The notes under the pieces were generated by a model. That model did not search any database. It saw nothing but the letters and a program-made list of their open reading frames with translations, and was not told the DNA's origin. The position numbers were made by a program, and so were the translations under genes. Shown here piece by piece: positions 45,709 to 64,000 of a stretch of 64,000 nt of DNA; the first letter of the stretch is position 1; each line of letters begins with the position of its first letter. This stretch comes from Erysipelotrichaceae bacterium (GTDB lineage Bacteria > Bacillota_I > Bacilli_A > RFN20 > CAG-449): positions 9,355 to 73,354 of the forward strand of contig SVBD01000008.1 in the NCBI GenBank assembly GCA_015059045.1, read 5' to 3'.

Positions 45709-46020
45709 ATGGCAAAAAGTAAAAAGATCAGAGTAAGATTAAAAGCTTATGATCACAAAATCTTAGACTTGTCAGTTGAAAAAATCGTCTCAGCTGCAAA
45801 CAACTCAGGCGCTAAAGTAGTTGGACCAATCCCACTACCAACTGAAAAACAAGTTTACACAATCTTACGTGCAGTTCACAAATACAAAGATGCTCGTGAA
45901 CAATTCGAAATCAGAACTCACAAAAGATTATTGGATATCGTTAATCCAACAAAACAAACTATCGATGCATTAACACACATGGATTTACCAGCAGGTGTTG
46001 ATATCGAAATCAAATTATAG
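45709..46020 (+). CDS. rpsJ: 30S ribosomal protein S10
   Basis: [14 protein letters not shown] signature. Confidence 0.97.
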
Positions 46021-46038
46021 GAAAGGCAGGAAACCAAT

Positions 46039-46746: not shown

Positions 46747-46759
46747 GGAGGAAGAAAAC

Positions 46760-47748: not shown

Positions 47749-47778
47749 GCCTTAAGGCGAATATAGGAGAAAAAAATC

Positions 47779-48618: not shown

Positions 48619-48638
48619 TAGGAAAGGAGAATAGTACA

Positions 48639-48929
48639 ATGCCACGTAGTTTAAAAAAGGGACCATTCGTTGATGCACACTTAATGAAAAAAGTTGAAGC
48701 ATTAAATGCAGCCCACAAAAAAGAATTAATTAAAACATGGTCAAGAAGATCAACAATCTTCCCATCATTCATTGAACATTCCTTTGCAGTCTATAACGGA
48801 CACGAATTCATCACAGTTTATGTTACAGAAGATATGGTTGGACATAAATTAGGAGAATTCGCTCCAACAAGAACATATAAAGGACACACTGGCCACACTG
48901 CTGAAGATAAAGCAGCACACGCTAGATAA
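48639..48929 (+). CDS. rpsS: 30S ribosomal protein S19
   Basis: [10 protein letters not shown]...YNGHEF. Confidence 0.97.
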
Positions 48930-48945
48930 TTAGGAGGAAAGAAGA

Positions 48946-49278
48946 ATGCAAGCAACAGCAAAAGTTACTGGAGTTCGTGTTACTCCTAGAAAATGTCGTT
49001 TAGTTATTGATTTAATTAGAGGAAAGAAAGTTTCTGATGCATTAGGTATCTTAGCAAACTTAAATAAATCAGCATCTCCAGTAGTTGCTAAATTAGTTAA
49101 ATCAGCAGCAGCAAACGCAGTAAACAACAATAAGATGGATGAATCTAAATTATACATCAAAGCAATCTACGCTAACGATGGACCAAGATTAAAGAGATAT
49201 ATGCCAAGAGCTAAAGGTTCTGCATCATCTATCATCAAGAGAACAAGCCACATCACTGTTGTGGTTGAAGAAAAATAG
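48946..49278 (+). CDS. rplV: 50S ribosomal protein L22
   Basis: VRVTPRKCRLV. Confidence 0.95.
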   Translation: MQATAKVTGVRVTPRKCRLVIDLIRGKKVSDALGILANLNKSASPVVAKLVKSAAANAVNNNKMDESKLYIKAIYANDGPRLKRYMPRAKGSASSIIKRTSHITVVVEEK

Positions 49279-49296
49279 AAAGGAGAAGTAAAGATT

Positions 49297-49959
49297 ATGG
49301 GTCAAAAAGTTAATCCTATTGGACTTAGAGTTGGTGTTAGCCGTAACTGGAATTCAAGATGGTACGCTAACAAAAAAGATTTTGCTTCTCTATTAAATGA
49401 AGATGTTAAAATCAGAAAATATTTAACAGCTAAATTAAAAGATGCTTTATTATCACACGTTGAAATTGAAAGAGTAAAAGATGTTGTTACAGTTTCAGTT
49501 TTCACAGCTCGTCCAGGTTCAGTCTTAGGACAAGATAATGCAAACATCAAAGAAATCACAAAACAAATTACAAAAATTGCAAACGGCAAAAACGTTAAAG
49601 TTTCTGTTGTTGAAGTTAAAAACCCATCACTTGATGCAAACATCGTTGCTCAAGATATGGCAAAACAATTAGAAGAACGTGCTTCATTCAGAAACGTTCA
49701 AAAGAAAGCTATCCAAAGAGTTATGAAAGCTGGAGCAGTTGGTGTTAAAACAGCAGTTTCAGGTAGATTAGCTGGTGCAGATATCGCACGTACTGAAGGA
49801 TACAAAGAAGGTGTTGTCTCATTACACACATTACGTATGGATGTTGACTACGCTTTAGCTGAAGCTGATACAACTTACGGAAAATTAGGCTGCAAAGTTT
49901 GGATTTCTCGTGGATTAGCTAACAAAGCTAAAAAAGAATCTGATAAGAAAGGAGAATAG
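49297..49959 (+). CDS. rpsC: 30S ribosomal protein S3
   Basis: [11 protein letters not shown]...KH domain. Confidence 0.97.
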
Positions 49960-49964
49960 TCACT

Positions 49965-50381
49965 ATGTTACAACCAAAAAGAACTAAATATAGAAGACCA
50001 CACAGTTTAAAATACGAAGGTCTTTCAAAAGCTGGTAACGAAGTATCATTCGGCGAATTCGGCCTTCAAGCTTTATCAGGAAATTATATCACTGCTCGTC
50101 AAATCGAAGCAGCTCGTATCGTATTAGCTAGATACACAAAAAGAAGTGGACAAATCTGGATTAGAATTTTCCCACAAATGGCTAAAACAAAGAAACCAGC
50201 TGAAGTAAGAATGGGTTCTGGTAAAGGTTCACCAGAATGCTGGGTAGCAGTAGTTAAACAAAACCGTGTTATGTTTGAAATTGGTGGAGTACCAGAACAA
50301 ACAGCACGTGAAGCATTACGTTTAGCTAGCTATAAACTTCCAATCAAAACAAAAATTATTGCGAAAGGAGACGTTAAATAG
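49965..50381 (+). CDS. rplP: 50S ribosomal protein L16
   Basis: [10 protein letters not shown]. Confidence 0.97.
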
Positions 50382-50383
50382 TT

Positions 50384-50581
50384 ATGAAAATTGCTGAAAT
50401 TAGAGAACTTTCTACAGTTGAATTAAACGAGAAAGTATATGAATTGAAACAAGAATTATTAGCTCTTCGTTTCCAACACGCAACAGGCCAATTAGAAAAT
50501 GGTAATAAAATCACTGAAATCCGTAAAACAATTGCTCGTATCTATACAGTAATTAAAGAACGTGAAATCGGTATTAACTAG
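50384..50581 (+). CDS. rpmC: 50S ribosomal protein L29
   Basis: Size, operon position, [12 protein letters not shown]. Confidence 0.9.
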
Positions 50582-50593
50582 GAGGATCTAAAG

Positions 50594-50860
50594 ATGACAG
50601 AAAGAAATACACGTAGAGTTATTCGTGGTGTTGTAGTATCTAATAAAATGGATAAAACAATCAACGTCTTAGTTGAAACACACAAAAAAGATCCTAAATA
50701 TGGAAAAAGAGTTAAATATGCTAAAAAATATTTTGCTCACGATGAAAACAACGAATGTAATGTTGGCGATGTAGTTGAAATCATGGAAACAAGAAAACTA
50801 TCTGCTAACAAACACTTCCGTTTAGTAAGAGTAGTTGCTAAAGCAACTGACGTTAAATAA
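50594..50860 (+). CDS. rpsQ: 30S ribosomal protein S17
   Basis: [12 protein letters not shown]. Confidence 0.95.
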
Positions 50861-50877
50861 GAGGAGGAAAAGAGATT

Positions 50878-51252
50878 ATGGTTCAAACTGAAACAAATTT
50901 AGTTGTAGCTGATAACTCAGGTGCAAGAAGTGTACGCGTCTTCCGCTTATATGGTGGATCAAAAAGAAGATCTGCAAACATTGGTGATGTAGTTCTTTGC
51001 GCAGTAAAAGACGCTATCCCAAATGCAAAAATTAAAAAAGGTGATGTTGTTAAAGGCGTTATCGTAAGAACTAAAAAGGGTATCGCAAGACCAAATGGTT
51101 CTTTCATTAAATTCGATGATAATGCAGTAGTTATTATCAACGAAGATGGTTCCCCAAAAGGAACTCGTGTCTTTGGCCCAATCGCTCGTGAACTTCGTGA
51201 AAAAGGTGAAGGATATATGAAAATTATTTCCTTAGCACCAGAAGTTTTATAG
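50878..51252 (+). CDS. rplN: 50S ribosomal protein L14
   Basis: VADNSGAR. Confidence 0.97.
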
Positions 51253-51264
51253 GAGGTACGTCCA

Positions 51265-51573
51265 ATGAAAATCAAAAGAGGCGACAAAGTAATCGTTATT
51301 GCTGGTGCAGATAAAGGAAAAGTTGGCACTGTTCAAAAAGCATTCCCTAAATTAAATAAGGTTGTAATTGACGGCGTTAACGTTCGTAAAAAACACCAAA
51401 AACCAACTCAAGGAAATCCAGATGGATCAATCGTTGAAATTTACGCTCCAATCCACGTTTCAAACGTAGCAGTCTATGATGAAAAAACAAAGAAAGGCTA
51501 CCGTGTTGGATACGATGTAACTGGAGACAAAAAAGTACGTGTCATGAAAAAAGTTGGCACAAAATTAGACTAG
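51265..51573 (+). CDS. rplX: 50S ribosomal protein L24
   Basis: [18 protein letters not shown] (KOW). Confidence 0.95.
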
Positions 51574-51586
51574 GAGGAAACTGATC

Positions 51587-52141
51587 ATGGCAGAAAGATA
51601 TGTTGCAAGATTAAAAACAAAATATACTTCTGAAGTTGTAGCTAAATTAGTTGAAGCATACAAATATGAATCAGTTATGGAAGTACCACACATTGAAAAA
51701 GTTGTTATCAACATCGGTGTTGGTGATGCTACACAAAACTCAAAGTTATTAGATGATGCAGTTAGAGATTTAACAATCATCGCTGGTCAAAAACCAGTTA
51801 TTACAAAAGCTAAGAAATCAATTGCTTCTTTCAAATTAAGAGAAGGTACAGCTATTGGCTGTAAAGTTACTTTAAGAGGTAACAGAATGTATGAATTCTT
51901 AGACAAATTATTCACAATTTCATTACCACGTGTTAGAGACTTCAGAGGTGTTTCTAGAAACGCATTTGATGGAAAAGGTAACTATACACTTGGTGTTAAA
52001 GAACAATTAATCTTCCCTGAAATTGATTTCGATAAGGTTTCAAAAATCAGAGGTATGGATATTGTTATCGTTACAACAGCAAACAGTGATAAAGAAGCTT
52101 ATACACTTCTTGAATTACTAGGTATGCCGTTTAGCAAATAA
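51587..52141 (+). CDS. rplE: 50S ribosomal protein L5
   Basis: Operon position; NIGVGDA...RGMDI. Confidence 0.95.
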
Positions 52142-52155
52142 GGAGGAGAAAAAGT

Positions 52156-52341
52156 ATGGCAAAGAAATCATTAATCGCAAAACAAGCTCGTCCTCAAAAA
52201 TTTAAAGTAAGAGAATATTCAAGATGTTCTCGTTGTGGCCGTCCACACTCAGTATTAAAGAAATTCGGCGTTTGCCGTATTTGCTTAAGAGAATTAGCAT
52301 ACAGAGGAGAAATCCCTGGTATGAAAAAATCAAGTTGGTAA
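52156..52341 (+). CDS. rpsZ: 30S ribosomal protein S14 type Z (zinc-binding, 61 aa)
   Basis: [20 protein letters not shown] Cys4. Confidence 0.95.
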
Positions 52342-52364
52342 TATAGAAGGAGGAATTATTAATT

Positions 52365-52760
52365 ATGACAATGACAGATCCAATTGCAGATATGCTTACA
52401 AGAATTCGTAACGCTAACGCAATGAAAAGCGCAAAAGTAGTAATGCCTCATTCCAACATGAAAGTTCACATTGCTGAAATTCTTAAGGAAGAAGGCTTTA
52501 TCAATGACTTCACTGTTACAGGTGATGTTAAAAAAGAATTAACATTAAGCTTAAAATATGCTGAATCAGGTGAAAGAGTAATTTCTGGATTAAAGAAAAT
52601 CTCAAAACCAGGTTTACGTATTAACGCTCCAGCTGATAAACTTCCACGTGTCTTAAATGGTTTAGGTATCGCTATCATCTCAACATCTCAAGGTGTTATG
52701 ACTGATAGAAAAGCTAGAAAATTAGGCATCGGCGGCGAAGTTATCGCTTATGTTTGGTAG
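52365..52760 (+). CDS. rpsH: 30S ribosomal protein S8
   Basis: [17 protein letters not shown]. Confidence 0.97.
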
Positions 52761-52772
52761 GAGGTAATAAGA

Positions 52773-53315
52773 ATGTCACGTATTGGTAAAAAACTTATTA
52801 CTCTTCCAGCAGGTGTTACAGTTACAAACAACGACAACGTTGTTACAGTTACTGGTCCTAAAGGAACATTAACAAAAACATTTGATAAAATTATCACTAT
52901 TAATATTAATGGTAATGAAATCACATGTACTCGTCCAAATGACGAAATTAAAGCACGTTCATTACACGGAACTACAAGAGCTTTATTAAACTCAATGGTA
53001 GTTGGTGTATCTGAAGGTTTCAAAAAAGAATTAGAAATCGTCGGTATCGGTTACAGAGCAGCTATGAGAGGAGAAAATATCGTATTAAATATGGGTTATT
53101 CTCACGAAGTAGTAATCAAACCAGAACCAGGCGTAAAAGTAACATGTACTGATGCAACTCACGTAGTTGTTGAAGGTATCGATGCTCAAGCAGTTGGTCA
53201 AACAGCAGCAGTAATTAGAGCAGTTAGAGAACCAGAACCATATAAAGGTAAAGGTATCAAATATAAAGGCGAATTTATCTTACGTAAAGAAGGTAAACGT
53301 GCTGGTAAGAAATAG
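52773..53315 (+). CDS. rplF: 50S ribosomal protein L6
   Basis: MSRIGKKLITLPAGVTV. Confidence 0.97.
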   Translation: MSRIGKKLITLPAGVTVTNNDNVVTVTGPKGTLTKTFDKIITININGNEITCTRPNDEIKARSLHGTTRALLNSMVVGVSEGFKKELEIVGIGYRAAMRGENIVLNMGYSHEVVIKPEPGVKVTCTDATHVVVEGIDAQAVGQTAAVIRAVREPEPYKGKGIKYKGEFILRKEGKRAGKK

Positions 53316-53339
53316 TAACTCAAGAAAGGAAATAGGAAT

Positions 53340-53696
53340 ATGATTAATAAACAATCTAAAAACGTTAGTCGTGTTAGACGTCACTTACGTGTACGTGCTA
53401 AAATCTCTGGAACACCAGAATGCCCTCGCTTGAGTGTATTTCGTTCCAACAAACACATCCATGCTCAAATCATTGACGATGTCAATGGAGTAACATTAGT
53501 AGCATGTTCTTCAGTTAGCTTAAAATTAGCAAACGGTGGAAACATCGAAGCAGCAGCTCAAGTTGGTGCTGGAATTGCTAAATTAGCTATTGAAAAAGGA
53601 ATTAGTAAAGTTGTATTCGATCGTTCAGGTTATGTTTACCACGGTCGTGTAAAACAAGTAGCAGAAGCAGCTCGTGAAGCTGGCTTAGTATTCTAG
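53340..53696 (+). CDS. rplR: 50S ribosomal protein L18
   Basis: [18 protein letters not shown]. Confidence 0.95.
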
Positions 53697-53708
53697 GAGG
53701 ATTCATTG

Positions 53709-54299
53709 ATGGCAGAAGAAAAAGTAGTAGTAGCTCCAGTAGAAGCTACTGAAGAACCAAAAAGAGCTCCTAGAGGTGACAGACCTCAAAGAGGCCCAAG
53801 AAAAGACGGTAAAAAACCTTTCGATAGAAAAAAATCTTTTGAAAAACAATATGAAGAAAGAGTTGTTTCTATTAACAGAATTTCAAAAACTGTTAAAGGT
53901 GGACGTCGTATGCGTTTCGCTGCATTAGTAGTTATCGGTGATGGCAAAGGTAACTTCGGTTACGGAACTGGTAAAGCTCAAGAAGTACCAGATGCAATCA
54001 AGAAAGCTGAAGAAGCAGCAAAGAAAAATATGTTCCACATAACAATTGTTAAAAATGGAACAATTTCTCATGATATTAACGGTTTATTTGGCGCTTGCCA
54101 AGTTTACTTAAAACCAGCTCCTGAAGGTACTGGAGTTATCGCTGGTGGACCAGTACGTGCTGTATTAGAATTAGCAGGTATCAAAAATATCTACTCTAAA
54201 GTATATGGCTCAAGAACTCCAATTAACTGTATCAGAGCAACTGTTGATGGTTTAGTTAATCTCAAAACAAGTGCACAAGTAGCTGCACTTCGTAAATAA
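53709..54299 (+). CDS. rpsE: 30S ribosomal protein S5
   Basis: [27 protein letters not shown]; ATG 8 nt after AGGAGG (ORF track starts at TTG 53706). Confidence 0.95.
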
Positions 54300-54313
54300 G
54301 GAGGTTAAATAAC

Positions 54314-54754
54314 ATGAAACTTAATGAATTAAAATACACTGAAGGATCAAGACCAACAGCAAAAAGAATTTGTCGTGGTATTGGTTCTGGCTTAGGCAAA
54401 AACGGTGGATCAGGACACAAAGGTCAAAAATCAAGAAGTGGTGGCGGAGTTCGCCCTGGCTTTGAAGGTGGTCAAAACCCAATCTACCGTAGATTACCAA
54501 AAAGAGGATTCACAAACTTCACACGTGTAGTTTATGGTGTTGTTAACGTTCGTGATCTAAATAAATTAGATGATGGTGCAGTAGTTACTCCAGCATACTT
54601 AGTAGAAAAAGGCTTAGTTGCTTCTGATTGCAAATTAGTCAAAGTATTAGGTGATGGTGAATTAACAAAGAAATTAAGCGTTTCTGCTCACAAATTCTCT
54701 AAATCTGCTGAAGAAGCAATCAAAAATGCCGGCGGATCTGTAGAGGTAATCTAA
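54314..54754 (+). CDS. rplO: 50S ribosomal protein L15
   Basis: MKLNELKY...[20 protein letters not shown]. Follows rpsE directly, with no rpmD between them. Confidence 0.95.
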
Positions 54755-54755
54755 T

Positions 54756-56102
54756 ATGAAAAAGTTGGTTGCCATATTTAAAAACAAGGACATTAGAGAT
54801 CGCATCCTATTCACTATTATGATTTTCTTCGTATATCGTATAGGATGTAATATCGTTGTTCCTGGTGTCACATTGAGTGATTCAATTGGTGATACAGACT
54901 TATTAAGTTTAATGAACTTAATGGGTGGTGGCGCCTTACAAAACTTTTCTGTGTTTGCTTTGGGGGTTTCTCCTTACATCACAGCATCAATTATCGTTGA
55001 ACTATTATCAAAAGATGTTCTTCCAGCATTAACTGAGTTAACAAAACAAGGTCAATCAGGAAGAAAGAAAATTGAAATGACTAACCGTATTCTTACATTA
55101 GTATTAGGTGCAGTACAAGGTTATGGTATTATCGTAACAATGTATAATTCAGGTGCAATTACTTTCACTGAAACATTAGATACTTGGATGTATATTAAAA
55201 CAATCATCATTATGATGGCTGGCTCAATGTTAGTTATGTGGATGGCAGACCAAATTACTCAAAAGGGTATTGGTAATGGTGTCTCAATGTTAATTTTCGC
55301 AGGTATTGTTTCAAGTCTTCCTTCACAAATCTTCTCAGCAGTTCAATACTTCGTTTCAAGCGAATTAATGACTGAAGAAGTAAGAATTGTTCAAGGTGCA
55401 TTAAAACTTGGATTATACTTAGCAACATTCGTCTTTATTATTGTATTCGTTACATTTATCGAAAAATCAATTAGAAAGATTCCAGTTCAACACTCAGGTA
55501 CAGGTGGAGCATTAAACGCTAAAGTTAATAATACTTCGTTCTTACCAATCAAAATTAACTCAGCTGGTGTTATTCCAGTTATCTTCGCAGGTTCATTATT
55601 AATGGCTCCAGCAGTTATCGTAAGTTTCATTGTTGAAGATTATACTTCAAATGAAACAATTACAAATATTCTTAACATCTTCAACCAATCAGCATTGACA
55701 GAAATGCCTTGGTTTGATGGAAGTACGTGGTACATGCCTTGGGGATTAATTATCTATGTACTACTAATCTTCGCTTTCAGTTTCTTCTATTCTAACTTAA
55801 CAATTAATCCTGAAAATCTTGCAGAAGATTTCCAAAAAAGAGGAACTTACATTCCTGGAGTTAGACCTGGTAATGAAACACAAAGATATGTTGGTAAAGT
55901 TTTAAATAGAGTTACATTCTTAGGAGCTACAGCATTAACATTTATCGCTGCTTTCCCAGTAATATTAACTCTACTTGAAATCGTTCCTCAATCATTAGCC
56001 CTTGGAGGAACAGGTATGATTATCGTCGTTGGTGTTGCTTTAGAAACATCACATCAAATCGATGGTCTAATCGCTTCGCAATCACATGCAAGCGTAGCAT
56101 AA
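54756..56102 (+). CDS. secY: Preprotein translocase subunit SecY
   Basis: 10 TM; operon position; GALQNFSVFALGVSPYITASII. Confidence 0.95.
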   Translation: MKKLVAIFKNKDIRDRILFTIMIFFVYRIGCNIVVPGVTLSDSIGDTDLLSLMNLMGGGALQNFSVFALGVSPYITASIIVELLSKDVLPALTELTKQGQSGRKKIEMTNRILTLVLGAVQGYGIIVTMYNSGAITFTETLDTWMYIKTIIIMMAGSMLVMWMADQITQKGIGNGVSMLIFAGIVSSLPSQIFSAVQYFVSSELMTEEVRIVQGALKLGLYLATFVFIIVFVTFIEKSIRKIPVQHSGTGGALNAKVNNTSFLPIKINSAGVIPVIFAGSLLMAPAVIVSFIVEDYTSNETITNILNIFNQSALTEMPWFDGSTWYMPWGLIIYVLLIFAFSFFYSNLTINPENLAEDFQKRGTYIPGVRPGNETQRYVGKVLNRVTFLGATALTFIAAFPVILTLLEIVPQSLALGGTGMIIVVGVALETSHQIDGLIASQSHASVA

Positions 56103-56117
56103 GGAGGTTTATAAAAT

Positions 56118-56768
56118 ATGAATATCATTTTAATGGGCCCACCTGGTGCTGGTAAGGGTACTCAATCAGAAAGAATTCTTGAATATGTAAAGATTCCACA
56201 TATTTCTACAGGAGATATGTTTAGAGAAGCTATCAAAAATCAAACTGATTTAGGAAAGCTAGCTCAATCTTACATTAATGCAGGAAATCTTGTTCCTGAT
56301 GAAGTTACAATCGCTTTAGTAAAAGAAAGATTATCTAGAGATGATTGTAAAGATGGCTATTTACTTGATGGTTTCCCAAGAACTATCCCTCAAGCAGAGG
56401 CATTACAAGTAATGGCTAAAGAAATCTCACGTCCAGTTGAATTAGTAATTAACATTACAGCAGACAAAGAAGAATTAGTTAAACGTATCTCTGGTAGACG
56501 CGTTTGTCCAAAATGTGGAAATTCTTATCACGTAAGTTTCAAACTTCCAAAAGTTGATGGAATTTGCGATGCATGCGGTAGTGAATTAGTTCAAAGAAAA
56601 GATGACACAATCGAAAGTTTAAATGTGAGATTAGATGCCTATGAAAACCAAACTAAACCTTTAATTGATTTCTATAGTAATTTAGGATTATGTAAGGAAG
56701 TTAATGGTCTTCAAGACATAAATGATGTATTTAAAGACATTCAAAAGATACTTGATGAGGTTAAGTAA
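56118..56768 (+). CDS. adk: Adenylate kinase (zinc-binding lid)
   Basis: P-loop GPPGAGKGTQ; lid CPKCG...CDACG. Confidence 0.95.
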   Translation: MNIILMGPPGAGKGTQSERILEYVKIPHISTGDMFREAIKNQTDLGKLAQSYINAGNLVPDEVTIALVKERLSRDDCKDGYLLDGFPRTIPQAEALQVMAKEISRPVELVINITADKEELVKRISGRRVCPKCGNSYHVSFKLPKVDGICDACGSELVQRKDDTIESLNVRLDAYENQTKPLIDFYSNLGLCKEVNGLQDINDVFKDIQKILDEVK

Positions 56769-56771
56769 TTC

Positions 56772-57530
56772 ATGATATCTATCAAATCTAGTAGAGAAAT
56801 TGCTTTAATGAAAAAAGCAGGACATATCTTAGCTAACGTATTTGAAGTACTTGAACCTTTATGTAAACCTGGTATTACTACGAACCACCTTTCCCAAGTT
56901 GCGGAAAAGGTGATTCGTGAAGCTGGGGGCATCCCAGAAGAAAAAGGATACTATGGATATCCCGCTGCAATTTGCGCATCAGTCAACGAAGAAGTTGTGC
57001 ATGGAATTCCATCAAATCGCAAATTGAGAAATGGAGATATCATATCAATTGATATTGTAGTATCATATCAAGGTTACATGGCAGACGCATGTCGAACATT
57101 CAAGGTAGGTAATGTGTCTAGTAATGCTGAAAAGCTTGTTAGAGTTACTGAAGAATGTTTCTTCAAAGCGATGGAATTTGCAAAACCAGGAAATCGAATT
57201 GGCGATTTATCTAGTGCAATTCAAAAACACGCTGAAGCTAATGACTTTAACGTAACTCGCGATTTTACAGGACATGGATTAGGCAAAGAAATGCATGAAG
57301 ATCCAATGGTTCCAAACTTTGGAACTCCAGGAACTGGACCTATATTAAAAGAAGGAATGACTCTTGCGGTCGAACCAATTATCTTAGAAGGAAGAAAAGA
57401 TGTATTTATTCTTCCTGATGAATGGACAGCAGTAACATGTGATAGAAAATTAGCTGCCCATTACGAAAATTCCATTGTTATTACAAAAGATGGTTACGAA
57501 ATTATAACCAAGAAGAGTGAAGGGGAATAG
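56772..57530 (+). CDS. map: Methionine aminopeptidase type I
   Basis: Metal ligands D..D..H..E..E; pita-bread fold sequence. Confidence 0.93.
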
Positions 57531-57534
57531 AAGA

Positions 57535-57753
57535 ATGGCTAAAAATGACGTCATAGAAGTAGAAGCGGTTGTCGTTGAAACATTACCTAACGCACAATTT
57601 AAGGTAAAACTTGAAAACGGCATAGTAATTCTTGCCCACGTTTCTGGTAAAATCCGTATGAATTACATTCGCATCTTACCAGGTGATAGAGTTACTGTAG
57701 AAATATCGCCATATGATTTAACACGTGGTAGAATAACATTTAGATACAAATAG
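57535..57753 (+). CDS. infA: Translation initiation factor IF-1
   Basis: [29 protein letters not shown]; start at the internal ATG of the ORF-track entry. Confidence 0.93.
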
Positions 57754-57799
57754 TATCGGCTAGATTCATAAAGCTAGCATTAAGTAGGAGGAAAAATTT

Positions 57800-57913
57800 A
57801 TGAAAGTTAGACCTTCAGTAAAACCAATTTGTGACAAGTGTAAGGTTATCCGCAGAAAAGGCCGTATAATGGTAATCTGCATTAACCCAAAACACAAACA
57901 AAGACAAGGTTAA
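57800..57913 (+). CDS. rpmJ: 50S ribosomal protein L36 (37 aa; absent from the ORF track)
   Basis: Manual translation [37 protein letters not shown] with GGAGG RBS upstream. Confidence 0.93.
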
Positions 57914-57931
57914 TTTTAGGAGGATATTAAA

Positions 57932-58306
57932 ATGGCACGTATTGTAGGTGTAGACATTCCAAATGATAAGCAAGTTGCTTATTCATTAACTTATATCTAT
58001 GGTATTGGATTATCTACTGCAAAAGAAATTTTAAATGCAGTTAACATTGATCCAACAATCAGAGTTAAAGATTTAAGTGAAGAACAATTAACAACAATCA
58101 GAAACGAAGTTTCTAAATACAAAACAGAAGGTGATTTACGTAGAGAAGTCGCTCTTAATATCAAGAGATTACAAGAAATCGGTTGCTACCGTGGATTAAG
58201 ACACAGAAGAGGTCTTCCAGTTCGTGGACAAAGAACAAAGAACAACGCTCGTACACGTAAAGGACCAAGAAAAACAATTGCAAATAAGAAAGTTGCAACT
58301 AAATAG
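57932..58306 (+). CDS. rpsM: 30S ribosomal protein S13
   Basis: [10 protein letters not shown]. Confidence 0.97.
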
Positions 58307-58325
58307 TTAGAAAGGGGAAAGAACA

Positions 58326-58718
58326 ATGGCAAGTAAAAGACCAACTACTCGTAAAAAGAGAATTAAGAGAAGTTATACTAAAGGTGTTGCACACATTCAT
58401 TCTACCTTTAATAACACAATTATTACTATTACTGATGAAGCAGGAAATGCAATCGCATGGTCAAGTGCTGGTGCATTAGGCTACAAAGGAGCTAAAAAAT
58501 CTACTCCATTTGCAGCTCAATTAGCAGCAGAAGCTTGTGCTAAAGCTGCTTTAGATCAAGGCTTAAAAACAGTTGATGTTGATGTAAAAGGACCTGGTCC
58601 AGGTCGTGAATCTGCATTAAGAAGCTTACAAGCTGCTGGATTACAAATTCAAACTATTACAGATACAACACCAATCCCACATAATGGTTGCCGCCCACCA
58701 AAGCGTCCACGTGGTTAG
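58326..58718 (+). CDS. rpsK: 30S ribosomal protein S11
   Basis: [18 protein letters not shown]. Confidence 0.97.
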
Positions 58719-58767
58719 TCGTGTAAACTAACTAAAACAAAACAAATTTTAACCAGGGAGGATCGCT

Positions 58768-59718
58768 ATGAAAAAATTTGAAAAACCAGGATTTAAAATT
58801 GCAGAATACAATTCAGATACAAATTATGGTCACTTTGTTATCGAACCTTTAGAAAGAGGCTTTGGTACAACTTTAGGTAATGCATTAAGAAGAGTTCTTC
58901 TTTCTTCTTTACCTGGAGCAAGTGTATATGCAATTGAAGTAGAAGGAGCACGTCACGAATTCTCTTCTCTTGATGGAGTTGAAGAAGACGTTACATCTAT
59001 CGTCTTGAGCTTAAAAGATTTAGTTTTAAAGATTTCTGATGAAACTGAAACTTCTCACAAATTAACACTTTGTGTTACAGAAGCTCGTGAAGTTACAGCA
59101 GGCGATATTGTTTGCCCAACTGGAGTTGAAATCATTAACAAAGACTTAGTTCTTGCTCACGTTAATGAAGGTGGTAAATTAGCAATGACTATCTATTGCC
59201 GTAATGGTAGAGGATATGTTACTGCTGAAGGAAACAAAGATGCAAATTTCCCTATTGGAGTTATTCCAACAGATTCTAATTATTCTCCAATTACAAAATG
59301 TTCGTGCGTAGTTGAAAATACTCGTGTTGGGCATAACAATAATTATGACAAATTAGATATGGAAATCTGGACAAACGGTTCTATGCAAGCACATGAAGCA
59401 ATTGCTTTAGCAGCAAAAATCTTAGTATCTCACTTTGAATTATTCGTTGAATTAAGCGAAAAAGCTCAATCTCAAGATATTCTTGCAGAAACTGTTGAAG
59501 AACCAAAGAATAAATATCAAGATATGACAATCGAAGAATTAGTCTTATCGGTTCGTTCATCTAACTGTTTAAAAAGAGCAAATATCTCTACAGTTATTGA
59601 ATTAACACAAAAAACTGAAGAAGACATGATGAAAGTCAGAAACTTAGGTAAAAAATCATTAAAAGAAGTTAAAGAAAAATTACAAGCAATTGGTCTTGGC
59701 TTCAGAGAATACGAATAG
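58768..59718 (+). CDS. rpoA: DNA-directed RNA polymerase subunit alpha
   Basis: N-terminal dimerisation domain and C-terminal domain (LSVRSSNCLKRANI). Confidence 0.95.
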   Translation: MKKFEKPGFKIAEYNSDTNYGHFVIEPLERGFGTTLGNALRRVLLSSLPGASVYAIEVEGARHEFSSLDGVEEDVTSIVLSLKDLVLKISDETETSHKLTLCVTEAREVTAGDIVCPTGVEIINKDLVLAHVNEGGKLAMTIYCRNGRGYVTAEGNKDANFPIGVIPTDSNYSPITKCSCVVENTRVGHNNNYDKLDMEIWTNGSMQAHEAIALAAKILVSHFELFVELSEKAQSQDILAETVEEPKNKYQDMTIEELVLSVRSSNCLKRANISTVIELTQKTEEDMMKVRNLGKKSLKEVKEKLQAIGLGFREYE

Positions 59719-59735
59719 AAAGGAGCCTTAAGTAA

Positions 59736-60140
59736 ATGAGTACACAAGGACGTAAAAATGTTCATGGTAAAGGTGGCGTAAGATTTAAAGCTGCTTATAC
59801 AAAGAGCAAATATGAATCAATGTTAAGAACTTTAGTTACAGATTTAATTGTTCACGAAACAGTTACAGTAACTTTAGCTACAGCAAAAGAATTATCAGCT
59901 TTAGCAGATAAATTAGTTACTCTTGGAAAAAGAGGAGATTTACACGCTAGAAGATTAGCTGCTAGAACAGTTAGAGATGTTTGGGCAGATGAAAAAAACA
60001 AAGTTACAGCACTTCAAAAATTATTTGGTGAAATCGCTACATTACATAAAGATCGTAACGGTGGATATACAAAAGTTTTAAAAGTAACTAATAGACGTGG
60101 AGATAACGCTCCAATGGCTATTGTAACTTGGACAAGATAA
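59736..60140 (+). CDS. rplQ: 50S ribosomal protein L17 (with about 20-aa N-terminal extension)
   Basis: LVTLGKRGDLHARRLAA...GGYTKVLK. Confidence 0.9.
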   Translation: MSTQGRKNVHGKGGVRFKAAYTKSKYESMLRTLVTDLIVHETVTVTLATAKELSALADKLVTLGKRGDLHARRLAARTVRDVWADEKNKVTALQKLFGEIATLHKDRNGGYTKVLKVTNRRGDNAPMAIVTWTR

Positions 60141-60157: not shown

Positions 60158-60183
60158 AACCTTCCTTATGGAAGGTTTTTTTA
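60158..60183 (+). terminator. Rho-independent terminator ending the ribosomal operon
   Basis: aaccttcc-ttat-ggaaggtt followed by tttttatttg. Confidence 0.8.
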
Positions 60184-60203
60184 TTTGTTAAGATTATTAA
60201 ATT

Positions 60204-60272
60204 GACTAATTTAATATATTAAATTATCATTTAATTGTAATAAGGAAAATATTTTTATCGTGGGTATAAAAG
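60204..60272 (+). promoter_or_regulatory. Promoter region for the large lipoprotein gene (TTGACT-N17-TATCAT, plus extended -10 TGgTATAAA closer to the gene)
   Basis: ttgact aatttaatatattaaat tatcat at 60204-60232. tgggtataaa at 60264-60272. RBS aaaggaga at 60287. Confidence 0.4.
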
Positions 60273-60299
60273 TGTTTCTTTAAAAAAAGGAGAAAAAAT

Positions 60300-63200
60300 A
60301 TGAAAATGAAAAAGATTTTTATGTTTATGCCATTTCTTTTGGCTGGCTTTCTTTTAACTTTGGCATCATGTGGTAATCTTGGTGGCGGAGGAAGTTCCGT
60401 TAGTGGCGGAGGCAAGGGTGAACATAATTGGACCCTTGTAACTGGAAAACCTGCTACATGTCAAGAAGAAGGTATGAAAGACTATTATACTTGTAGTCAT
60501 TGTAACGAGTATAAAGGTACAGATGGATCTATTTATACAAGTTTAGATGAATTTATTCTTCCTAGAGTAGATCATAATTATAACTATGTTGGAGGATTTA
60601 CTGGATGTGAAGGCGAAGGCTTAAAAACTCACTTCACATGTGAATATTGTGATACTTTATTTGATGAATATAAAAATCCTACAACTGAAGAAGAGCTTAA
60701 AGTAATTGGACAACATAATTTAAATTATGTATATGGTTATGAAGCTAGTTGTACTTCTGAAGGAAGAGTAGCTTATTATGAATGTTTAAAATGTATGGAA
60801 TGTTTTGAAGATGAAAATGCTACAGTAAAAATTAATAGAGAAGATACAATCATTCCTTCAACTCATAATTTAACTCATTATGACGAAGTTAAAGCAACAT
60901 GTGATAATTCTGGTAATAAAGAATACTGGCATTGTAACTCTTGTTATACTTATTTCTTAAGTGAAGAAGCTGTCACTAGTGCTGAATGGAGTGAAATCTA
61001 TTTACCTCAATTACAACACTCTTTTACTAAATATGAAGTTGAAAGTGAAGAAACATGTGAAACAGATAGAGTAGAAGTAGCTCATTGTGATCACGAAGGT
61101 TGTGATGAAATAGATACTAAAACAATTGAAAATTCTAAATTAGGTCACAACTTTGTTGATGGAAAATGTACAAATTGTCAATGTGATGAATTTTCTGAAG
61201 GTTTAGAATATTATATTGAAATCGATGAAAATGATGAAGCAGGTATTGTTATTACAGGTTTAGGAACTTGTACGGATAGAGATATTATTATTCCTGAAAA
61301 ATTAAAGGGAATACCAGTAGTTGCTGTCAATTTTTACTATTCAATTGATATTGATTCTATTTATATTCCTAATACTGTTAGAAGTATTCGTAGAATTAAT
61401 TCTTCTTCTTTAAAAGAAGTTATTTTTGATGAAAATTGTGCTCTTGAAGAATTAGAATATGAAGCATTTAGATGGTGTACATCTTTAGAATCGCTTTCAC
61501 TTCCTCAATCTTGTCAAAAGATTGGAAGTTACGCATTTGCTGATTGTACATCATTAAAACATATTAATTTAGATTTTGTTGTTGAAATTGATGAATACGC
61601 ATTTGCTGATTGTACATCTTTAGAATCTGTTTCAATTCAAAGAGCAACAAAAATTGGAGCTAATGCATTCTATAATACAACTGGTTTAGGTAGAGTAGAA
61701 ATGAACCAAGCTACCGCTTTAGAAACTATTGGTTTTTATTGCTTTAGAAACAGTGGACTTACTTACATCTCTTTACCAAAATCATTATCTAAGATTGCAG
61801 AAAGAGCATTTGAGGATTGTCATAATTTAGAAACTGTAGTATTCCAACAAGGTAATACTTATATTGATGAATATGCTTTCTTTGGATGTGATTCGTTAAA
61901 GGAAATTAATTTACCAAAATCAATAGTTTCTATTGGTGATTCAGCATTTAAAGATTGTGCTTCATTAGAAGTAGTTAAAATGGATTCTACTGTTTTAGAA
62001 ACAGTTGGTGAATCAGCATTTGAAGGTTGTGAATCGTTAAAAGAAATTTACATGCCAAATAATACTGATGTCGATTTCTTAGCAGGCGCATTCATAGATG
62101 CTGAAGCTATTGAAACAGTATATATTTCAAATACTCATGTAAATCAATGGTTAACATATAACTTTAGCGATGAAACATCTAACCCATTATATGTTGGTAA
62201 TGTAACAGTTAAAGCGTATGTTTCTCAAGTCAATGATTATGTAGAGATTGATGGTATTGATTTAACAACAACTTATGGAACAACAGTTCCTCACTATGCA
62301 TTCTATAATACTAAATATGAAATTAAAGGATTAGAATCAGTTATTTTTGCTGGAGATTATGCTTTTGCAAAAGTTGACACATTAGTTAATATATATCTAG
62401 ATAAATGTGCGTTTATTGGTGTTGGGGCTTTCTCTGATTGTAAAAATTTAGAAACTGTCCGTTTCTTGACTATTGATAGTCCAACTCCTGCAGCAATCTG
62501 CGGACGTGCGTTTGCTGGTTGTGATAAGATTACAAACTTAGTCATCCCTGATTATATTGATGAATTTGGCATGGGTGCATTTGATGGCTTATTTAATTTA
62601 AGATCATTATCACTTCCATTTATTGGTTTAGAAAATAAGAGTAGTGAAGATACATATCAATATCCTTTAGGTATTTTATTCTCAAGAGAATCTACTTCTG
62701 GAGTTGATACATATTCTGTCACTCAACAATACTATAAAGATAGCTTAAATAATTTAGTTAGTGAGACTTTCTATATCCCTAGTTCATTGAAACATCTCAG
62801 TGTAACTTCTCAAGAAGAATTATTAACAGGCTCATTAATGAATATTAAACTTGATTCATTAACAATTAACGAAAATTGTTTAACTTTAAATAACAATTAT
62901 AACATTTCTGGTGATTCCTTAATTAAACACTTTGTTTATGAGGGTACTTTAGAAAAATGGTTTAGAGCGAAAATTATCGGATTAACTTATACAGGTGATT
63001 ATTTCTATACATATGAAGATGGCGTTAGAACTTTACTTGAACATATTGTAATTCCTGAAAATATTATTAACATCAATAGCAATTTATTCCATGGAGTACA
63101 AAGTGTTAGATCATTAACAATTGATCATAAAGTATTATGTAATGTTAATTATGCATTCTTATGTCCAAATCTTTATGAAATTTATATTACAGCTGATCCA

Positions 63201-64000
63201 GCAGTATTTAATTTAACATTAACTCCTGGAGGATTTGATGAATATGGTAATGCTTCACGTTATGCAAAAGTAATTCACTATTCAAGTGAAGATCCTTCTA
63301 TCTTCTACGAAGATGAAAATGGATTTAAATTTATTTGTTATGAAGATACAAAAGTATTATATGGAACACCTGCTCCAATTGATGGATATTTAGAATTACC
63401 AGAATCATTTACATATAATGAAGAAGTAATTACAGAATATACTATCGCTCCTAATACTTTCGCTGTTGTAAACGGATTAAAAGAATTAGTAATTCCAAAT
63501 AGTGTTACAGATTTAGCTGAAGGTGTCTTTGGCGGTTGTTCTTCATTAGAAAAATTAACAATTCCTTCAATGTATGGAAAAACATTATATGCTTTATTTG
63601 GATGTGAAGAAGCAGATGATATGGAGACTTCTTTAGAAGAAGTATATGTAACTAATGAAACTACAGATATTGCAGAAAGAGCATTCTATAATTGCGATTC
63701 GTTAGTAGTAATCCATATTGAAGGTACACTAGAAAATGTTGGTGCTTATGCATTTGGTTATTGTGATAGCTTAGAAGAAGTAATTCTTGCTGATTCAATT
63801 AAAACATTTAGCATTAGTGTATTTAGTAATTCAGGTTCATTAAAGAAAGTATGGTTACCTGCTTCATTAGAAGTTATTGAAAGTAACTTATTCTATTATT
63901 CAAAAGGTTCATTAAAAGAATTAAGAACACCATTTTTAGGTGAAAGCAGAGATGCAACAGATAACTGTTCAGTCAAATACTTATTTGATAATAGCGCTAG
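60300..64000 (+). CDS. Very large surface lipoprotein (more than 1233 aa; 3' end beyond the window): lipobox, Gly/Ser linker, 5-6 tandem Cys4 repeats, then BspA-type leucine-rich repeats (LRR_5)
   Basis: Hand-translated frame has no stop to the window end, which is why it is missing from the ORF track. MKMKKIFMFMPFLLAGFLLTLASC|GNLGGGGSS. Repeats of form HN..Y...ATC..EG...YY.C..C. From about aa 330, LRR_5 units such as SLESLSLPQSCQKIGSYAFADCTSLKHINL / VVEIDEYAFADCTSLESVSI / KIAERAFEDCHNLETVVF. Confidence 0.75.
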   Translation, partial: MKMKKIFMFMPFLLAGFLLTLASCGNLGGGGSSVSGGGKGEHNWTLVTGKPATCQEEGMKDYYTCSHCNEYKGTDGSIYTSLDEFILPRVDHNYNYVGGFTGCEGEGLKTHFTCEYCDTLFDEYKNPTTEEELKVIGQHNLNYVYGYEASCTSEGRVAYYECLKCMECFEDENATVKINREDTIIPSTHNLTHYDEVKATCDNSGNKEYWHCNSCYTYFLSEEAVTSAEWSEIYLPQLQHSFTKYEVESEETCETDRVEVAHCDHEGCDEIDTKTIENSKLGHNFVDGKCTNCQCDEFSEGLEYYIEIDENDEAGIVITGLGTCTDRDIIIPEKLKGIPVVAVNFYYSIDIDSIYIPNTVRSIRRINSSSLKEVIFDENCALEELEYEAFRWCTSLESLSLPQSCQKIGSYAFADCTSLKHINLDFVVEIDEYAFADCTSLESVSIQRATKIGANAFYNTTGLGRVEMNQATALETIGFYCFRNSGLTYISLPKSLSKIAERAFEDCHNLETVVFQQGNTYIDEYAFFGCDSLKEINLPKSIVSIGDSAFKDCASLEVVKMDSTVLETVGESAFEGCESLKEIYMPNNTDVDFLAGAFIDAEAIETVYISNTHVNQWLTYNFSDETSNPLYVGNVTVKAYVSQVNDYVEIDGIDLTTTYGTTVPHYAFYNTKYEIKGLESVIFAGDYAFAKVDTLVNIYLDKCAFIGVGAFSDCKNLETVRFLTIDSPTPAAICGRAFAGCDKITNLVIPDYIDEFGMGAFDGLFNLRSLSLPFIGLENKSSEDTYQYPLGILFSRESTSGVDTYSVTQQYYKDSLNNLVSETFYIPSSLKHLSVTSQEELLTGSLMNIKLDSLTINENCLTLNNNYNISGDSLIKHFVYEGTLEKWFRAKIIGLTYTGDYFYTYEDGVRTLLEHIVIPENIININSNLFHGVQSVRSLTIDHKVLCNVNYAFLCPNLYEIYITADPAVFNLTLTPGGFDEYGNASRYAKVIHYSSEDPSIFYEDENGFKFICYEDTKVLYGTPAPIDGYLELPESFTYNEEVITEYTIAPNTFAVVNGLKELVIPNSVTDLAEGVFGGCSSLEKLTIPSMYGKTLYALFGCEEADDMETSLEEVYVTNETTDIAERAFYNCDSLVVIHIEGTLENVGAYAFGYCDSLEEVILADSIKTFSISVFSNSGSLKKVWLPASLEVIESNLFYYSKGSLKELRTPFLGESRDATDNCSVKYLFDNSA

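Follow-up and report, generated by a model that had tools for sequence, protein, structure and literature searches.

An uncurated His/Cys repeat array, probably a zinc-stapled stalk, in a surface lipoprotein with BspA-type leucine-rich repeats

Introduction

What could a tandem array of small His/Cys repeats do between the lipid anchor of a bacterial surface protein and a very large region of leucine-rich repeats? This question is raised by a gene that starts near the end of the window (the whole stretch of 64,000 nucleotides that was analyzed), which comes from an uncultured gut bacterium of the Erysipelotrichaceae; NCBI labels the gene product, from a MAG of this family, as hypothetical. The gene was found to be an ordinary member of a very common, uncurated repeat family, and its product is probably a fibrillar-adhesin-like surface lipoprotein, in which a zinc-stapled stalk holds BspA-type LRR_5 repeats away from the cell.

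Results

The gene encodes an intact lipoprotein with an LRR_5 region

By inspection of open reading frames, the ATG at 60300 opens an uninterrupted frame that is still open at the end of the window. The full gene was recovered (L001:10565-17443) and encodes a protein of 2292 aa; it is identical to the window across the shared part, and the same gene occurs without change in a second, independent assembly. In addition, four further full-length strain variants are each 2292 aa, the same length being found in 5 of 5 members with the window protein included. An earlier note on this DNA had called for recovery of the full-length gene and had named an interrupted frame as a sign of a pseudogene; the recovered frame is intact. 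No close relative turned up when GTDB representative genomes were scanned with the full protein. The features around the start of the gene and outside the array are as follows.

60158 to 60177, + strand: intrinsic-terminator-like hairpin and T-run closing the upstream rpsM-rpsK-rpoA-rplQ unit (8-bp stem with 4 GC pairs, then TTTTTATTTG)
60202 to 60230, + strand: promoter-like site TTGACT-17-TATCAT (consensus match only, 10/12)
60287 to 60292, + strand: ribosome-binding site AAGGAG, ATG 7 nt downstream (direct sequence reading)
60300 to 60371, + strand: lipoprotein signal peptide, residues 1-24, lipobox L-A-S-C ([LVI][ASTVI][GAS]C rule, basic n-region KMKK, hydrophobic core)
60372 to 60422, + strand: Gly/Ser-rich flexible tether, residues 25-41 (GNLGGGGSSVSGGGKGE; sequence inspection)
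61185 to 64000, + strand: BspA-type leucine-rich repeat (LRR_5) region, ending 3443 nt beyond the window at L001:17443 (Pfam match)

Two terminator-like sites of the hairpin and T-run type were seen, compared to 0.2 expected, and the regional count of promoter-like sites was not over the shuffle expectation. A bacterial lipoprotein was recognized by a basic n-region, a hydrophobic core and the lipobox [LVI][ASTVI][GAS]C in the first ~35 residues; pattern inspection of the signal peptide MKMKKIFMFMPFLLAGFLLTLASC gave MKMKK, IFMFMPFLLAGFLLT and L-A-S-C24, respectively, and by the lipobox pattern the mature protein begins with a lipidated Cys24. LRR_5 (PF13306, Pfam gathering threshold 27.7 bits) was matched with E 3e-104 and 344 bits in the window part (8 stretches) and with E 7e-167 and 547 bits in the full protein (12 stretches, residues ~315 to 2292). 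The earlier description of a surface lipoprotein with a tandem Cys/His array followed by BspA-type leucine-rich repeats is thus borne out by the lipobox, the order of the array and the PF13306 match, including the position of LRR_5 after the array.

The array consists of five His/Cys units and a partial cap

The units were scored with profile A1, a profile of the repeat, or with an independent profile of the long variant that was made of 124 units from other proteins and contains zero window sequence.

60423 to 60572, + strand: R1, residues 42-91 (H42, C54, C65, C68), long (~51-aa) variant; 33.0 bits with the independent profile, AF2 pLDDT >90
60573 to 60713, + strand: R2, residues 92-138 (H92, C103, C114, C117); 14.8 bits with the independent profile, AF2 pLDDT 80-95
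60714 to 60863, + strand: R3, residues 139-188 (H139, C151, C162, C165, spare C168); 47.3 bits with the independent profile, AF2 pLDDT >93
60864 to 61016, + strand: R4, residues 189-239 (H189, C201, C212, C215); 47.1 bits with the independent profile, AF2 pLDDT >93
61017 to 61145, + strand: R5, residues 240-282 (H240, C253, C263, C268); 35.5 bits with profile A1, which includes R5, AF2 pLDDT <65
61146 to 61184, + strand: partial terminal cap, residues 283-295, HNFVDGKCTNCQC (H283, C290, C293, C295); matches the recurrent cap GH[NS][YF]xxGxCxxCG

Every unit opens with HN or HS, and one His and three Cys are invariant per unit (H-x11-12-C-x9-10-C-x2/4-C). The earlier note had counted four Cys per repeat, but the spacing that it quoted, C-x(9-11)-C-x2-C, holds three, and the His that opens each unit completes the invariant set of four, so the repeat is not of a Cys4 type. 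All six Cys-containing strings that it quoted are present, and its 5-6 tandem repeats starting with HN or HS correspond to five full units and a partial cap. Unit periods are 50, 47, 50, 51 and 43 aa, compared to modes of 41 and 51 aa in the family. R1-R4 fully fit the family motif H-x11-12-C-x3-G-x6-C-x2-C, while R5 is a shorter, degenerate variant with a C-x4-C knuckle (C-x9-C-x4-C) and without Gly17, and was undetected by the independent profile. One extra Cys each was found in R3 (C168) and in the cap (C295). The units share 14-33% pairwise identity, and no DNA-level tandem repeat was found in the array. Among strains the array diverges faster than the LRR region, yet 0 of 24 His/Cys positions vary in the four full-length variants.

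The repeat family is very large and has no curated model

A search with profile A1, of the kind that the earlier note had suggested, matched 21,609 protein clusters (at 50% identity) at E<=1e-3 and 10,045 at E<=1e-10, with up to 65 repeat copies per protein. With the independent profile the window protein reached 127 bits (E 1.4e-32, scaled to 1.8 billion proteins) and each of R1-R4 was detected, whereas none of 200 shuffled versions of residues 41-300 scored above 2.7 bits. Across family units, few positions other than the four ligands and one Gly are conserved. Since alignment A2 was too diverse for the design of a DNA pattern, a 6-sequence alignment was used instead, and scanning with this pattern found the repeat in gut and rumen Firmicutes, Actinobacteria, Bacteroidota and one spirochaete. 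Few other repeat modules are as common in the surface proteins of gut and rumen anaerobes.

Other searches returned little or nothing. A word-indexed protein search, whose index is poorly suited to a short divergent repeat, gave 3 matches for the window N-terminus and 1 for a 94-unit alignment; phmmer with the window N-terminus against PDB sequences gave nothing; and Pfam/NCBIfam scans of the N-terminus, single units, close homologues and consensus-like members gave nothing over cut-off for the repeat. Regarding membership in rubredoxin, zf-C2H2, TFIIS ribbon, RYYR-CCHC and other families, only scattered sub-threshold zinc-knuckle matches were observed, and none was accepted. Among Pfam models, RYYR-CCHC (PF23674) came closest, if only weakly, to the C-x3-G-x6-C-x2-C hairpin that the units contain; with it the window N-terminus scored 13-17 bits against a gathering threshold of 27 at about profile positions 21-54 of 79, and 6 of 94 single family units reached E<=0.01; membership was therefore rejected. 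In arrays the alignment is confined to about positions 30-53 of the 79 in this profile, no single stretch passes alone, and many arrays are tagged PF23674 by pipelines because sub-threshold matches are summed. Literature queries on RYYR-CCHC/RYYR, as well as a broad one on BspA and cysteine-rich proteins, found nothing relevant.

On the other hand, profile A1 matched residues 854-886 of PDB chain 9qa6_A at E 2.8e-10, a chain that was not reached by phmmer with the window sequence alone. This chain is the M64 IgA protease of Thomasclavelia ramosa (IgAse/ThomasA, Q9AES2, 9QA6), which carries the domains ZBD1/ZBD2, or CTD2/CTD4; on the basis of AlphaFold models and SAXS these have been described as zinc-linked, end-to-end beta-sheets, as predicted by AlphaFold, and proposed to form a stalk, or 'periscope' fold (PMC12237041, PMC12415215). 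Judged by profile and motif, the window repeat is homologous to ZBD1/ZBD2. The novelty claimed in the earlier note accordingly holds with respect to curated Pfam/NCBIfam models, but not otherwise, the family being large and one member having been described in 2025; the note had said that a match to a described family of known function would refute it, and this applies by half, as a description exists but comes with no curated model, solved structure or demonstrated function. Because there is no such model, proteins with the repeat are named 'hypothetical' or after a partner domain, and tens of thousands of them would gain an annotation from a curated one.

A predicted fold for R1-R4, and family statistics that favour putative zinc sites between neighbouring modules

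AF2 with an alignment modelled R1-R4 at pLDDT 92-97, with 80-95 along R2 (pTM 0.49), R5 at <65 and the cap at <50, compared to a pLDDT of 34 for single-sequence AF2. The predicted fold of R1-R4 is thus confident; by DSSP the model has short strands and one 4-residue helix per unit in R1-R4, and Foldseek against PDB gave no match at E<=1e-3. The metal site that the note had suspected is in keeping with the invariant His and three Cys per unit, which most likely bind a structural zinc tetrahedrally; the constancy of all 24 His/Cys positions among the strain variants points to metal rather than disulfides as well.

Which residues would share one zinc was addressed with statistics drawn from the 150 top-scoring proteins. 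The first-hairpin Cys was lost in 10.8% of last units compared to 1.9% of internal ones (p 2e-15), and an extra HxH was found in 7.8% of first units compared to 1.4% of internal ones (p 2e-10). In addition, where unit i had lost its first-hairpin Cys, HxH in unit i+1 rose from 1.2% to 11% (p 7e-6), with no rise in unit i itself. Taken together, the frequencies in end units and the covariation between adjacent units favour a site that would bridge neighbouring modules, made of the first-hairpin Cys of unit i with the His and CxxC of unit i+1, over the two other arrangements considered, namely an intra-unit H-C-C-C site, which also uses all ligands of the window protein, and a site made of CxxC of unit i with the His and Cys of unit i+1. 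Under the bridging reading, the fourth ligand of the first unit is not obvious. An iron/redox (rubredoxin-like) electron path was set aside, because a predicted spacing of ~37 A between sites appears too far for electron transfer.

The cap motif followed the last unit in 17% of arrays compared to 1.5% in the background, and H-x3-9-CxxC caps occurred after arrays at 11 times the background rate, which is in line with a bridging site. In one protein, P0002, the cap is attached to the LRR without any array, and therefore the cap may be the N-terminal end of the LRR and not a part of the stalk.

Arrays tend to lie next to the anchor

Architecture was sampled in about 79 proteins from 80 genome loci with crude anchor rules. 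The array directly followed a lipobox in 14 of these proteins, and in 16 a C-terminal TM or LPXTG-like anchor was no more than 200 aa away from it, whereas about 48 of the ~79 fell into neither class by these rules. This distribution suggests that arrays adjoin the membrane or wall anchor at whichever end it is, with the reservation that about 48 of ~79 fit neither class. Among lipobox-type proteins LRR_5 lay beyond the array in 5 of 7, and one locus (L045) has the same order of parts as the window protein; the layout of lipobox, array and LRR_5 recurs in other genomes.

Discussion

From the sequence we infer zinc binding, its bridging topology, a rigid rod, a stalk role and adhesion by the LRR region, which would fit together as follows. 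Cleavage by signal peptidase II would leave the protein attached to the outside of the cytoplasmic membrane through the lipidated Cys24, which is followed in series by the Gly/Ser tether, five small beta-rich modules and the cap. Each zinc would be held by the first-hairpin Cys of one unit together with the leading His and CxxC knuckle of the next, stapling the modules end to end into a stiff rod of perhaps ~190-220 A, as scaled from the ~110 A predicted for three IgA-protease modules. This rod would be the stalk that lifts the LRR_5 domain of ~2000 residues, presumed to be the ligand-binding part, through and beyond the wall.

It is unlikely, in our view, that the repeats are themselves adhesive and bind, for example, a host or food glycan or protein, with the LRR region as a second binding region. 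The passengers of the family are varied (cohesin, transglutaminase, discoidin, choline-binding repeats, SLH, LRR_5), copy numbers of up to 65 exceed what a spacer seems to need, and the faster evolution of the array than of the LRR among strains is often seen in exposed binding surfaces; stalk and adhesive roles can also blur (PMC8286594). However, conservation beyond the four ligands and one Gly is sparse and shows no surface patch, and an anchor-adjacent position at either terminus is what a spacer predicts. The IgA-protease domains are, moreover, dispensable for substrate cleavage (PMC12237041).

A zinc-responsive element or extracellular metal store, by which display of the LRR region would be metal-gated, being stiff only with zinc, or by which zinc would be buffered, seems improbable to us. 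Interface sites would make rigidity metal-dependent, and six sites per chain would be present on an abundant surface protein. Cys3His sites, however, normally bind zinc very tightly, as permanent structural sites. The modules apparently lack a hydrophobic core and rely on their metal sites, and regulation by environmental zinc has been raised (PMC12415215), but the same work favours a purely structural role, and regulatory signs are seen neither in the window nor in PMC12237041 or PMC12415215.

Disulfide bonding of the Cys without any metal, as in EGF-like or other Cys-rich repeats, might be expected of an extracellular protein, where such repeats often are disulfide-bonded, and yet is very improbable here: the Cys count per unit is odd, whereas EGF-like repeats have an even one, an invariant His accompanies it, His (HxH) compensates for a lost Cys, the hosts are strict gut anaerobes of a reducing habitat, and no disulfides were seen in the IgA protease, which behaved better with reducing agent (PMC12237041). 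A non-functional feature (chance pattern, assembly artefact or decaying gene) can practically be dismissed in view of an unbroken 2292-aa frame with its own ribosome-binding site and terminators, two identical independent assemblies, four strain variants of equal length and 127 bits for the real sequence against at most 2.7 for shuffles.

A zinc-stapled stalk thus remains the reading that we prefer for the window protein. With less confidence, and as a possibility that we would put somewhat below even, the family as a whole could be a large uncurated class of extracellular zinc-stapled rods in gut anaerobes, with at least 21,600 clusters in at least 4 phyla, a bridging zinc, the GH[NS][YF]xxGxCxxCG cap and zinc-dependent stiffness and display. 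The family scale, the bridging topology and the cap are in neither of the 2025 papers (PMC12237041, PMC12415215). If this is true, zinc would be needed for adhesins, enzymes and cohesins to be displayed, and its availability might control how far gut bacteria project adhesins, IgA protease, cohesins and other surface machinery. The repeat may represent a type of stalk that is held together by metal staples instead of a hydrophobic core or isopeptide bonds.

Comparison with known systems

LRR_5 repeats and a surface location are common to the window protein and BspA-type proteins (Tannerella forsythia BspA, Treponema LrrA, Trichomonas BspA-like). Unlike the window protein, prototype BspA has, to our knowledge, no His/Cys repeat stalk. 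An anchor, a stalk of tandem small domains and a distal binding domain are also the parts of fibrillar adhesins and Periscope proteins (PMC8286594, PMC8201768, PMC9704523). Regarding the fibrillar-adhesin layout (PMC8286594), the order of lipobox, array and LRR_5 is seen here, and the stalk and adhesive roles would correspond; for none of the 82 stalk families of that work is a Cys or zinc basis mentioned, neither 'cysteine' nor 'zinc' occurring in its text. Periscope proteins have near-identical DNA repeats and vary in length among strains (PMC8201768), whereas the window protein has no DNA tandem repeat, its units share 14-33% identity and all five full-length members have the same length, and membership was rejected. 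The G5/E repeats of SasG and Aap are likewise surface stalks of elongated single-layer beta-sheets with no hydrophobic core and a zinc link (PMC12415215), but have no sequence relation to the window repeat; in Aap zinc bridges two protomers via His, Asp and Glu, whereas the predicted Cys/His sites of the window protein are intramolecular.

The IgA protease of T. ramosa comes from the same broad lineage (Erysipelotrichaceae, older sense), and its subdomain I (HNLTLVAAKAATCTTAGNSAYYTCDGCDKWFAD) has the same motif as R4 of the window protein (HNLTHYDEVKATCDNSGNKEYWHCNSCYTYF). Both proteins would have small three-stranded sheets with a short helix and predicted His/Cys zinc sites linking successive sheets, and in both the repeats are placed between the anchor and the functional domain. 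At one site of the protease, the bridging assignment disagrees with the ligand count of PMC12237041 (2 His and 2 Cys). The window protein has five consecutive canonical units of His and three Cys of the 51-aa type and a cap, whereas the protease has 3 + 2 irregular subdomains, mostly with 2 His and 2 Cys, and an Ig-like barrel between them. An N-terminal lipobox serves as anchor in the former and a C-terminal sortase/TM anchor in the latter, and the passenger is LRR_5 in the window protein, in contrast to the metzincin protease of T. ramosa.

Target gene, neighbours and strain variants

The target gene lies in frame 2 of the + strand, with an ATG at 60300, and is open to the end of the window. 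Exact look-up of the neighbouring RplQ led to contig L001, in which the full gene (L001:10565-17443) encodes 2292 aa and is identical to the window in the shared part; another assembly, made from a different sample, has an identical gene sequence. The protein is recorded at NCBI as MBE6132558.1, 'hypothetical protein [Erysipelotrichaceae bacterium]'. Features of the window referred to here are as follows.

4767-4842: tRNA-Lys (CTT), the sole Rfam or ARAGORN match in 64 kb
26151-29723: 1190-aa ORF, pyruvate:ferredoxin (flavodoxin) oxidoreductase of the same Erysipelotrichaceae MAG (NCBI MBE6132509.1), consistent with an anaerobic fermenter
45700-60140: ribosomal-protein, secY, adk, map, infA, rpmJ, rpsM, rpsK, rpoA, rplQ cluster immediately upstream of the target gene, GC 35-37% vs ~29% elsewhere
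60158-60177: terminator-like hairpin between the rplQ end of the cluster and the target gene
60300 to window end, + strand: target gene

The gene follows rpsM-rpsK-rpoA-rplQ; its AAGGAG ribosome-binding site is preceded by a promoter-like site, and a second terminator-like hairpin lies 3' of its stop codon. The 90% cluster of this protein contains four full-length variants, each 2292 aa long with 68-104 differing positions, and none of the 24 His/Cys positions was changed among them. The intact frame, the two identical assemblies, the equal-length variants and the gene's own ribosome-binding site and terminators show that it is not a pseudogene, which the earlier note had named as a possible refutation. 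In the strain variant P0160, divergence of the array was ~2.7 times that of the LRR region (30/300 vs 74/1992 substitutions, for 60300-61200 vs 61200-64000 plus L001 beyond), and an additional Cys arose via T217C.

Layout of the window protein

The N-terminus of the protein, MKMKKIFMFMPFLLAGFLLTLASC, has a basic n-region followed by a hydrophobic core; the lipobox, L-A-S-C, supplies Cys24 as the predicted lipidated residue. The parts that follow are listed below.

Residues 25-41: Gly/Ser tether after the lipobox
Residues 42-91, 92-138, 139-188, 189-239 and 240-282: five tandem units (R1-R5)
Residues 283-295: short cap, HNFVDGKCTNCQC

Each unit contains one His and three Cys in the motif H-x11-12-C-x9-10-C-x2-C, with C-x4-C as a variant in R5, and two spare Cys (C168 and C295) are present. 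Every Cys-containing string quoted in the earlier note was found in the protein, and the feature it had flagged is real; its description as a 'Cys4' repeat was wrong, because the invariant columns in the alignment with related units are H, C, C and C. Downstream of the array, Pfam LRR_5 scored 344 bits in the window part and 547 bits over 12 stretches in the full protein, in which the Pfam scan beyond the N-terminal array detected no other domain.

Repeat family and curated models

In an exhaustive HMMER search of 1.84 billion cluster representatives, a profile of 8 units matched 21,609 proteins at E<=1e-3; 10,045 of these passed E<=1e-10 and 2,220 passed E<=1e-30. Many of the proteins are giant, with up to 65 matched stretches each. 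In the top 150 proteins, the distance from one unit to the next was bimodal, at 41 aa (consensus HTEViDxAVapTCTeTGLTEGkHCSVCgEVLVAQevipALGH) and 51 aa (HtLxkteAvaATCTexGNiEYWtCsxCGKxFSDaxGtxEItxxxtVipalGH); the units of the window protein are of the 51-aa type. To avoid circularity, a profile built from 124 long units of foreign proteins only was run against the window protein, which scored 127 bits (E 1.4e-32 for the 1.84-billion-protein library size) with R1-R4 each detected singly, whereas the top score of 200 shuffles was 2.7 bits. Pairwise identity of the window units was only 14-33% and no DNA-level tandem repeat was found in the array; the units are old.

No Pfam or NCBIfam model exceeded its cut-off for the window N-terminus, single units, the more canonical homologue P0003 or consensus-like family members, and the same scans gave only scattered weak zinc-knuckle matches. 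The earlier note's failure to recognise a described family is therefore borne out as regards curated models, but the repeat is not 'novel', since its family has very many, widely distributed members and one of them already appears in two 2025 papers. The commonest weak Pfam match was PF23674 (RYYR-CCHC), whose summed score in multi-copy proteins exceeded the sequence cut-off (up to 66 bits) with no single stretch above cut-off. Its alignment was nearly always limited to profile positions 30-53 of 79, only 6/94 single units reached E<=0.01, and the window N-terminus scored 13 bits. Membership was rejected, the match being taken as a shared C-x3-G-x6-C-x2-C hairpin; a literature search found no paper on RYYR-CCHC.

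Exchanged ligand residues were observed in sub-families represented by P0020, P0062 and P0085: in 'ATHTTAG' units the hairpin Cys is replaced by His, and 'ANCHQNG' units have a CH pair and a unit boundary with Cys for the leading His (…VPC-TAE…). Such His/Cys interchange is compatible with metal ligands. A third unit type, HxWxWVxDxEATxTxxGxKHxEC, has no hairpin Cys and corresponds to subdomain III of the IgA protease.

Taxonomic spread, anchors and partner domains

A DNA-pattern scan with C[TD][ESN][ASD]GN[IKS]EY in one genome per species gave 234 confirmed places, 80 of which were examined. These were in Clostridia (Ruminococcus, Lachnospiraceae, Oscillospiraceae, Faecalibacterium, Blautia, Christensenellaceae), Bacilli (Acholeplasmatales, Anaeroplasmataceae, Coprobacillus, Faecalitalea), Actinobacteria (Atopobiaceae, Eggerthellaceae, Coriobacteriaceae), Bacteroidota (Parabacteroides, Prevotella, Alistipes, Bacteroides) and one Spirochaetaceae MAG, nearly all from gut or rumen. 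Among ~79 proteins from these loci, the array directly followed a lipobox in 14 and lay <=200 aa from a C-terminal hydrophobic or LPXTG-like anchor in 16, the remainder falling outside both classes under these crude rules. LRR_5 came after the array in 5/7 lipobox-type proteins scanned, and locus L045 has the part order of the window protein: lipobox, HSH, two units, cap GGHVFAEGVCTVCG and then LRR_5. Other partner domains were cohesin, choline-binding and other wall-binding repeats, transglutaminase with Big_2, SLH, Flg_new and discoidin; source names for such proteins give the partner domain only, or 'hypothetical'. At L022:5464-8082 (Acholeplasmataceae MAG), the five repeats of a lipoprotein are followed by ~600 aa without any Pfam match at E<=1e-5, an uncharacterised passenger domain on the same kind of presumed stalk.

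Conserved residues and possible sites shared by successive units

With a pattern requiring neither the first Cys nor the His, 2972 units were located in the top 150 proteins. The first-hairpin Cys (C13) was absent from 1.9% of internal units vs 10.8% of array-ending units (p 2e-15), and HxH, in which a further His precedes the leading His by two residues, occurred in 1.4% of internal vs 7.8% of array-starting units (p 2e-10). Among pairs of neighbouring units, HxH in the second unit (i+1) increased from 1.2% to 11% when C13 was lost from the first (i) (p 7e-6); no rise was seen in unit i itself. Furthermore, a cap H-x3-9-C-x2-C, usually of the form GH[NS][YF]xxGxCxxCG, followed the last unit in 17% of arrays with C13 in that unit vs 6% without (p 0.008; background rate 1.5%), and the window cap LGHNFVDGKCTNCQC and those of P0074, P0003 and L045 match this pattern. 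Because of these end statistics, the pair covariation and the cap frequency, we favour a topology of interface staples, in which a site would comprise C13 of unit i and His1, Cys24 and Cys27 (unit numbering) of unit i+1. A possible alternative, an H-C-C-C site within each unit, likewise uses every ligand. The favoured topology predicts the following sites in the window protein.

Predicted site 1: H42, C65, C68 + ?
Predicted site 2: C54, H92, C114, C117
Predicted site 3: C103, H139, C162, C165
Predicted site 4: C151, H189, C212, C215
Predicted site 5: C201, H240, C263, C268
Predicted site 6: C253, H283, C290, C293

In the related protein P0002 (JGI fragment, 288 aa), 84% identical and aligned to window 61134-62000, the lipobox and whole array are replaced by a prepilin-type N-terminal cleavage/methylation motif (MNRKGFTLIELL...), with the join just before the cap (…ENSRLGHNFVDGKCTNCQC…). 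An exchange of anchor modules appears to have taken place here, with the cap retained on the LRR, so the cap may belong to the N-terminus of the LRR, or may be complete in itself as H283/C290/C293/C295.

Link to IgA protease and predicted fold

When the unit profile was searched against PDB sequences, the sole real match was residues 854-886 of the 'IgA protease' chain 9qa6_A, HNLTLVAAKAATCTTAGNSAYYTCDGCDKWFAD (E 2.8e-10), with weaker copies near residues 948 and 1103. Both descriptions of these protease domains are AlphaFold models, the fold being without a solved structure (PMC12237041, PMC12415215). Run on the window N-terminus by itself, AF2 produced no usable model (pLDDT 34). When residues 41-300 were aligned with 35 five-unit segments of family members, mean pLDDT was 82.5, with 92-97 for R1-R4 and <50 for R5 and the cap, which are not matched by the rows of the alignment; short strands and one 4-residue helix were modelled in every unit. 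Foldseek against PDB returned no match at E<=1e-3 (top match E 0.17), and both papers likewise report no similar solved fold (PMC12237041, PMC12415215). The same predicted repeat fold was found in BFVD A0A8S5QLF9, an 'S-layer homology domain' fragment on a Podoviridae-labelled contig (Foldseek E 1.4e-7), which is either a mis-assigned bacterial contig or a phage-borne copy of the module.

Proposed architecture and comparison with known systems

The best-supported reading of the window protein is a fibrillar-adhesin-like lipoprotein made of anchor, tether, zinc-stapled rod and LRR. The lipid anchor and then the flexible tether would lie at the membrane-proximal end, and the putative rod of five modules and cap, ~190-220 A long if each module spans ~37 A as in the model of the protease domain ZBD1, would display the very large BspA-type LRR domain beyond the wall. 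Rival readings are that the array is itself a binding module, that it is a zinc-gated or zinc-storing element, and that its repeats are disulfide-bonded.

Periscope proteins have near-identical DNA repeats and varying repeat number; this identity was rejected, since the window repeats are not near-identical at the DNA level and their number is constant among the strains sampled. The closer comparison is with the Thomasclavelia ramosa IgA protease, the one described member of a barely characterised kind of repeat, for which predicted zinc sites at interfaces between modules are described in general terms (PMC12237041, PMC12415215), although the stated ligand count for one protease site disagrees with our bridging assignment. 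The family scale, two main unit lengths, terminal cap, evidence for bridging topology and anchor-adjacent position are absent from both papers, and these wider family observations are worth curating and testing.
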